Shown here one piece after another: positions 10,351 to 10,646 of a DNA stretch of 13,455 nt. Made by a program: the position numbers and the translations under genes. Position 1 is the first letter of the stretch, and each line of letters begins with the position of its first letter. Origin of the DNA: a virus. The stretch lies in the UHGV virus genome UHGV-0114979. One strand, given 5' to 3'. A model generated the notes under the pieces. It made no database searches, was not told the origin of the DNA, and was given only the letters and a program-made list of their open reading frames with translations.

Positions 10351-10646
10351 TTGTGTACCAAATTGCGTACCAAACTAAAATCACAAATTATGAAACCCTT
10401 GTTCATGGCGGTTCTCAGGGGTGTTGCGCGTAATCGTGAAAGAGGAAGGTAGGTTGTTTATCTGTGCCTGTCATTGTCTAGCATTGTCCACTGTAGTTAA
10501 TTAACTGTCTGTTATAACTCGGAAAACAACCCTTTTTTAACCTGAGTATGTCTACGAACGTCAAATATAGTTGTTTACTGTGCGCTGTTGTCCATGTGAT
10601 ATTGTGTACCAGATGTGTACCAAACCATTATTTCTGAGCGTACCAA
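10351..10646 (+). repeat. Five same-orientation arm-type repeats (consensus GTACCAAA, mostly TGTGTACCAAA) upstream of int; candidate attP arms
   Basis: GTACCAAA at 10354-10361, 10366-10373, 10616-10623 and 10639-10646, plus GTACCAGA at 10605-10612. Three copies are preceded by TGT and two by GC. They form two clusters about 250 bp apart, bracketing a segment that holds a perfect 12-bp palindrome AGTTAATTAACT (10494-10505). The last copy ends 9 bp before the int ATG. Confidence 0.5.

Follow-up and report, generated by a model that had tools for sequence, protein, structure and literature searches.

Five direct repeats, very probably arm-type integrase sites, around the sbcB-specific attP core of a P22-like phage

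The attachment module that directs phages 2851, Sf101, mEp234, HK544 and the Stx2c phage 1717 to sbcB is described in the literature and in sequence records through its core. The core is annotated in the records of mEp234, HK544 and phage 1717, which call the 13 bp either the attP core or a "duplication due to insertion" and place it 227-215 bp upstream of the int start, and the HK140 record carries a 147-bp 'putative attP'. In the Sf101 paper these 13 bp are given as the attP of phage 2851, and integration into sbcB is confirmed (PMC4159516); according to that paper, which cites Strauch 2008, the core and the sbcB target had already been published (PMC4159516). The records of this module and the Sf101 paper annotate the 13-bp core only, and we found no description of its arm-type sites in the searchable literature.

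Experimental data are available for Φ24B, whose integrase is a relative. Mohaisen et al. showed that the Φ24B fragment attP427 integrates in vivo with Int and without Xis, that attP350, attP237 and attP140 do not, and that IHF is dispensable in vivo; no binding or arm sites were identified by these authors (PMC7581858). The 5'-RACE start of Φ24B int was located 46 bp downstream of the old GTG start by Fogg et al., who described int expression as essentially constitutive (PMC3064807). In KplE1 (CPS-53), the P' arm of attL contains the int promoter, and the arm-type sites of IntS overlap the -10 of intS (PMC2951348). The stretch from the core to the P' sites holds two blocks with a total of five sites for the recombination directionality factor (RDF) TorI, of the forms GTTCG, GATCG and GTCCG. 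IntS and TorI each repress intS, and the authors predict the same control wherever an int promoter overlaps attL (PMC2951348). IntS represses its promoter through P' sites, as does P4 Int, for which the paper cites Piazzolla 2006 (PMC2951348).

We analysed a stretch of viral DNA of 13,455 bp (the window). It belongs to a P22-like temperate phage whose attP is intact and of the sbcB-integrating "phage 2851 / Sf101" type. The window encodes P22-type ejection proteins, the antirepressor Ant with the sar antisense RNA, a tailspike with a P22 head-binding domain, an acyltransferase, a tyrosine integrase and a small AlpA-like protein. It is a mosaic, and no full-window match was found among the phages of the collection searched. 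No tRNA gene is present in the 13,455 bp. The sar RNA (5214-5281, minus strand; Rfam RF00262, 94 bits for a gathering score of 43) overlaps the beginning of ant (5252-6184), which encodes the P22-type antirepressor. The acyltransferase gene (Acyl_transf_3, 8635-9627, minus strand) has the tailspike gene on one side and attP on the other, a position commonly taken by genes that modify the O antigen (serotype conversion). The oacB gene of Sf101 is a different gene; DNA homology between Sf101 and this part of the window begins only near 10050. The features of the attachment region are given in Table 1.

Table 1. Features of the attachment region, in window coordinates
Feature	Start	End	Strand	Remarks
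P1	10352	10362	+	TGTGTACCAAA; int-distal arm; kept in mEp234, Sf101, HK140 and HK544
P2	10364	10374	+	TGCGTACCAAA; 12 bp from P1, start to start; 54-bp gap to the core
Candidate bend site	10389	10401	+	TATGAAACCCTTG; weak match to the IHF consensus (1 mismatch), between P2 and the core
attP core	10429	10441	none	CGTAATCGTGAAA; 13 bp common to attP and to attB in sbcB
Replacement sbcB 5' end	10442	10474	-	phage-borne; ATG at 10472-10474, MTGTDKQPTFLFHDY...
Candidate int promoter	10574	10603	+	TTTACT (10574-10579), 18 bp, TGtGATATT extended -10 (10595-10603); sequence inference
P'1	10603	10613	+	TGTGTACCAGA; arm-type repeat, int-proximal arm
P'2	10614	10624	+	TGTGTACCAAA; arm-type repeat, 11 bp from P'1
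P'3	10637	10647	+	AGCGTACCAAA; 23 bp from P'2; starts with A
int	10656	11834	+	heterobivalent tyrosine integrase, 392 aa; two domain matches
AlpA/HTH_17-like small protein	11815	12006	-	presumed excisionase (RDF); match below the Pfam cut-offs

An exact search of both strands found four copies of GTACCAAA, starting at 10355, 10367, 10617 and 10640, and one copy of the variant GTACCAGA, starting at 10606, all on the plus strand, as the original prediction had stated; no further exact GTACCAAA occurs on either strand of the window. The full repeat unit is 11 nt long (TGYGTACCAAA). From start to start, the left pair is spaced by 12 bp and the right trio by 11 and 23 bp, distances near one and two turns of the helix. 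Two copies are found 55-77 bp to the left of the core and three copies 162-206 bp to its right, so the gap between the core and P'1 is 161 bp, and the last copy ends 9 bp before the ATG of int, again as predicted. The motif is present on both arms and is unrelated to the sequence of the core. A full-text literature search with GTACCAAA returned unrelated primer matches only.

To the left of P1, a conserved block (10275-10342, plus strand) encodes the C-terminus of a HumD/UmuD-like protein, with VITYIINDARYGEFDDYPLK as the last residues before the stop codon. Phage HK140 has this gene intact; the window has a 3' remnant of it, and this remnant explains the sequence conservation left of P1. An ORF of 100 codons on the minus strand (10082-10384) spans P1 and P2. 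This ORF is almost certainly spurious and not a gene, because it is antisense to the humD/umuD remnant; it had no Pfam match and only 4 near-identical matches among 5.8 billion proteins.

The core CGTAATCGTGAAA occurs once in E. coli K-12, at nucleotides 37-49 of sbcB. Comparison with a lysogen, which had been proposed as a check, was carried out on the genome sequence of strain AVS0787. Its attL reads sbcB, core, P' arm and int, and its attR reads P arm, core, the original sbcB 5' end and dacD; in both, the switch from phage to host falls exactly at the 13-bp core. In all attL matches listed, homology starts at window position 10429. The P' arm was found in 592 of 5,426 complete E. coli genomes (about 11%) and a P arm ending at the core in 536 complete E. 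coli genomes. Because the junctions, attB and the published core all place the core at 10429-10441, it lies between the two repeat clusters, which thus bracket the crossover region as had been proposed, and within the 10380-10600 interval to which the crossover had been predicted to map. The strand-exchange (overlap) region must lie inside the 13 bp. Inspection by eye gave no convincing pair of core-type inverted repeats around them. An uninterrupted P-core-P' site, similar to attP, was also seen in 3 complete E. coli chromosomes (for example NZ_CP040107.1, 2015025-2015434), beside separate partial matches; such chromosomal sites might reflect tandem prophages at sbcB.

The minus strand immediately to the right of the core reads ATG ACA GGC ACA GAT AAA CAA CCT ACC TTC CTC TTT CAC GAT TAC, so that MMNDGKQQSTFLFHDYE, the N-terminus of K-12 SbcB, is replaced by MTGTDKQPTFLFHDY from the phage. 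With this phage-supplied 5' end, the sbcB reading frame stays open after integration, and PGAP annotates a full-length sbcB of 1425 nt in lysogens. After integration, the gene is presumably under phage-supplied upstream sequence.

The original prediction had pointed to a 12-bp palindrome between the clusters, AGTTAATTAACT, with the implied reading that it is the core. The palindrome exists and is perfect, but its coordinates are 10495-10506 and not the predicted 10494-10505, a shift of one base; it lies in the P' arm and 53 bp to the right of the core. It has virtually no probability of being the crossover site, in spite of its perfect symmetry and its position between the repeat clusters, since the prophage junctions and attB put the crossover at the 13-bp core. 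In attL the palindrome belongs entirely to the phage-derived P' arm, and attB does not contain it. Perfect 12-bp palindromes are present in the window at chance frequency (4 versus 3.9 expected), and this one is poorly conserved, being missing in SEN34, in locus L017 and in other relatives that have 61-74% identical integrases and the same sbcB core. We rejected it as the crossover on these three grounds.

The integrase encoded to the right of the repeats has the domains expected of a heterobivalent enzyme. Residues 4-85 match Arm-DNA-bind_3 (PF13356, E=8e-18) and residues 204-366 match the Phage_integrase catalytic domain (PF00589, E=1e-16). The N-terminus matches the solved N-domains of CP4-like integrases (PDB 3JTZ and 3JU0) and the rest of the protein matches the lambda Int structures 1Z1B and 5J0N. 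The catalytic residues R239, H328, R331, H354 and Y363 are invariant among six diverged relatives. Phages of the sbcB module (2851, 1717, Sf101, mEp234 and HK544) have integrases 98-100% identical to that of the window, the same 13-bp core and all five repeats, and the int region is also 98-100% identical to that of HK140 and of many Stx1a, Stx2a and Stx2c prophages.

We then compared the repeats among relatives of the integrase, which were drawn from annotated phages, IMG/VR and a set with a single genome for each bacterial species (80 loci, 41-100% identity). Three direct repeats were scored upstream of int when the first was at -61 to -46, the first spacing was 11-12 bp, the second was 20-25 bp, and all three copies agreed in at least 6 of 9 columns. 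Such a triplet was found in 71 of 84 loci, with integrases 41-100% identical to that of the window, whereas a control search shifted 70 bp upstream found one in 13 of the 84. In the 13 relatives where the triplet is not at the expected spacing, it is displaced in several. Outside the repeats, the flanking sequence cannot be aligned over such distances. Prophages make up most of the 84 loci, and in them only the P' arm is visible.

The distal pair could be compared in lineages with an intact attP. A pair of the lineage's own motif variant was present at -283 to -305, with a spacing of 12 bp, in all seven, namely the group of the window, L127 (73% Int identity), L155 (62%), SEN34 (61%), Φ24B/P27 (56%), Proteus phage Brookers (54%) and Cronobacter phage ENT39118 (49%); the equivalent of P1 and P2 is therefore found in six lineages besides that of the window. 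The motif itself is GTACC in 8 loci (the window and 7 others), GTACA in 59 and TG(Y)GTCC(A/T)AA in 14 loci of Vibrionaceae, and within one element the variant is identical on both arms. The number, order, orientation and spacing of the repeats are thus conserved while the motif drifts in step on both arms, as is expected of sites that are read by one co-evolving protein domain.

It is scarcely credible, given this conservation, that the repeats are due to chance or are neutral relics, for example of a local duplication in AT-rich non-coding DNA. The region is indeed AT-rich (61%), short repeats are common in such DNA, and one of 500 first-order Markov resamples of the window did contain four same-strand copies of an 8-mer within 300 bp; but position, spacing, number and orientation are kept down to 41% protein identity, where the surroundings cannot be aligned. 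The five TGYGTACCAAA repeats are very probably arm-type Int-binding sites of attP, with P1 and P2 on the distal arm and P'1 to P'3 on the int-proximal arm. The part of the original prediction that placed arm-type integrase sites around a core is upheld by the layout and by the comparative evidence; its implied reading of the palindrome as that core is not. We infer that Int is the protein that binds the repeats and that bending factors are needed.

The integrase of Φ24B is 55.7% identical to that of the window, and its attP has the same layout of two and three repeats at the same distances from the int start: TGTGTACATAA and TGGGTACTAAT, a 24-bp core at -219 to -196, then TGCGTACATAT, TGAGTACAGAA and TGTGTACAGGA. 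It differs from the window in its motif (GTACA instead of GTACC) and in its core, TTATATCCATTTAACTAAGAGGAC, which is located in argW and is the reverse complement of the argW 5' end. In Φ24B, Int is required for integration and a separate Xis for excision. The cores of the argW-type relatives (loci L013, L014 and L039-L062, and Φ24B itself, L097), whose integrases are about 54-56% identical to that of the window, also correspond to the argW 5' end in reverse complement, which indicates entry into the 5' part of the tRNA gene, the end opposite to that used by KplE1.

The ends of the Φ24B constructs were obtained by mapping the published primers (PMC7581858 supplements) on the genome, and the resulting lengths agree exactly with the names: attP427 extends from -435 to -9, attP350 from -390 to -41, attP237 from -351 to -115 and attP140 from -285 to -146. 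The attP427 fragment, which recombines with Int alone, holds all five sites. The attP350 fragment, which does not recombine, lacks P'3, retains four bases of P'2, and is also 45 bp shorter at its far left end, in a tail gene, so that more than the loss of P'2 and P'3 may underlie its failure. In HK140 and HK544, which belong to the group of the window, homology is found only from -384/-377 onwards, and sequences further to the left are therefore unlikely to matter. The construct data fit a requirement of Int itself for the proximal arm sites in Φ24B, short of proof, and the minimal attP of 350-427 bp corresponds to the span needed for all five sites.

The window also encodes a presumed excisionase, whose counterparts in relatives are annotated as AlpA family or excisionase-like. 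The xis gene of Φ24B, which was identified experimentally, occupies a position homologous to that of the AlpA-like gene of the window (PMC3064807). It is quite unlikely that this AlpA-like RDF or another accessory protein, and not Int, binds the five repeats. Sites of RDFs are likewise short, phased direct repeats in att arms, as with the five TorI sites between the core and the P' sites in attL of KplE1, and a phasing of 11 bp would suit a small winged-helix protein. However, the repeats of the window are present on both arms, two and three, like the annotated arm repeats of P4, while in KplE1, the one RDF example examined, all TorI sites are on a single arm. Moreover, the five-site fragment of Φ24B recombines with Int only, in the absence of Xis, and this activity is lost in the fragment without P'2 and P'3 (which is also shorter by 45 bp on the left).

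A second family of repeats provides a better candidate for RDF sites than the arm repeats. In relatives, the P' arm contains phased arrays of up to 5 GTTCA or GTCCA units (loci L018-L021 and L093), as a pair near -170/-150 and as a run that directly precedes P'1. These units resemble the TorI sites GTTCG and GTCCG of the KplE1 attL, and the GTYCA arrays are by this analogy candidate excisionase sites; the RDF of the window has no significant similarity to TorI, so that the comparison is one of analogy only. The family is weak in the window (GTCCA at 10486 and 10590 and GTTAA at 10496, in regions 10486-10500 and 10570-10594), where it takes the forms GTCCA, GTTAA and GTTGTTTA, and the candidate excisionase-site units in the P' arm are GTCCA/GTTAA and GTTGTCCA. 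The palindrome overlaps the GTCCA-N5-GTTAA pair, which corresponds to GTTCA-N6-GTTC(A/G)TTAAC in relatives; it overlaps the second unit of this first pair, whose counterpart is GTTC(A/G)TTAAC. At most, the palindrome may be part of a candidate RDF site.

The three proximal repeats, which we read as arm-type sites, cover the last 53 bp before the ATG of int, where the promoter must lie, which makes autoregulation of int through the P' sites plausible. The candidate extended -10 of the int promoter abuts P'1, and its TGnNATATT box recurs in relatives of 60-100% identity; a consensus sigma-70 promoter scan of 9600-10800 found none in the P' arm at the threshold used. An overlap of the int promoter with the P' sites of the window is suggested by these sequence features. 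The RACE start of Φ24B int, at -29, falls between P'2 and P'3, and P4 Int and KplE1 IntS are precedents for such autoregulation. The constitutive expression of Φ24B int limits how strong any autoregulation can be. A 10-nt exact direct repeat, ATGTGATATT, is also present at 10266-10275 and 10594-10603. Its right copy contains the candidate extended -10 next to P'1, and its left copy straddles the boundary of homology with HK140 and HK544 and is not conserved there; this direct repeat is probably fortuitous.

Since the proximal units cover the int leader and promoter region, they could be regarded as operators of int only, bound by some regulator, with the distal pair as an incidental duplication that has no role in recombination; the P' arm is, moreover, the only one that could be surveyed in most of the 84 loci, which are prophages. 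We consider this very unlikely. In seven of seven lineages with an intact attP, the distal pair keeps its distance and its 12-bp spacing and has the lineage's own variant; it is located 54 bp from the core, much as in P4, and an incidental duplication would not track changes of the motif.

If the repeats are arm-type sites, the Arm-DNA-bind_3 domain at the N-terminus of Int would bind all five of them and the catalytic domains of the same Int protomers would bind the core. A DNA-bending host factor would help to fold the approximately 300 bp from 10352 to 10647 into an intasome; matches to the IHF consensus are not enriched in the window (17 found versus 22.5 expected). The intasome would recombine with the matching 13 bp of sbcB, which lie in codons 13-17. 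After integration, core, P' arm and int stand beside sbcB with its phage-supplied 5' end (attL), and the P arm and core are at the other end of the prophage (attR). The P' sites cover the 5' leader and the promoter-proximal region of int, and their occupancy by Int would probably also lower int transcription.

The drift of the motif may be mirrored in the integrase. Residue 39 of Int (window 10770-10772, in the VIxFQ beta-strand) is the N-domain column that best separates GTACC from GTACA loci: it is Q, R, L or N in 8 of 8 GTACC loci and S, T or A in 54 of 59 GTACA loci, in a count that ignores kinship between loci. The arm-site motif and the N-domain of Int could form a natural specificity series, with GTACC, GTACA and GTCC variants on one 2+3 scaffold, in which residue 39 would set arm-site specificity, an idea that we hold as tentative and rather doubtful. 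The sbcB-type (GTACC) and argW-type (GTACA) modules are both found in Stx prophages of E. coli O157. If residue 39 sets specificity, related prophages in the same cell would be insulated from each other in intasome assembly and in int autoregulation, and a simple code for re-targeting Arm-DNA-bind_3 domains would be at hand.

The integrase module analysed here places Stx1a, Stx2a, Stx2c and serotype-converting phages at sbcB, and the integrase of Φ24B, from Stx2a phages, is a close cousin; core sequences only had been annotated or published before. The core and the sbcB target were already known, and it is the five arm sites that appear to be undescribed in the literature searched. Five named sites give a concrete model of attP, would account for the need of Φ24B for an attP of more than 350 bp, and can be targeted in mutagenesis, in the engineering of integration vectors and in tests of self-limitation of Int in lysogens. 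They leave the general understanding of such systems unchanged, arm sites being an expected feature of an attP of the P4/lambda type and an ordinary, well-understood kind of element.

KplE1 IntS is only 22% identical to the integrase of the window, its arm motif, found in both orientations, contains TAAA, and its target is the 3' end of argW; with this identity and a different motif, IntS was rejected as a close relative from which arm sites could be transferred. Lambda attP carries two arm-type sites on one arm (P) and three on the other (P'). The lambda integrase is heterobivalent like that of the window, which resembles lambda Int structures over the whole protein, but the family of the N-domain and the motif differ, and the arm lengths are reversed, the int-proximal arm being the long one in the window. 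Orientation also differs, lambda int being transcribed towards attP from distant promoters (PMC3064807), so that the P' sites of lambda are not in the int promoter.

The comparison with arm sites of P4-type integrases, which had been suggested at the outset, proved informative. The P4 record (NC_001609) contains 'attP arm sequence repeat' features (4151-4174, core of 20 bp at 4078-4097, 3942-3965 and 3915-3926) that share the geometry of the distal arm: read towards int, the P4 core is preceded at 53 bp by two adjacent units with a spacing of 12 bp, and the window has a spacing of 12 bp and a gap of 54 bp. P4 also has, like the window, an integrase with Arm-DNA-bind_3 and catalytic domains and an int gene transcribed away from attP. 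The proximal arm of P4 consists of two adjacent units and one inverted unit at the int start, 112 bp after the core, whereas the gap between the core and the P' sites is 161 bp in the window; the third unit of P4 is inverted and overlaps the start codon, while that of the window is direct and ends upstream of it. The two integrases are 25% identical and the P4 motif is TTGGGGGCAT instead of TGYGTACCAAA. The target of P4 is a tRNA-Leu gene. Unlike P4, the element of the window targets the 5' end of a protein-coding gene, sbcB.
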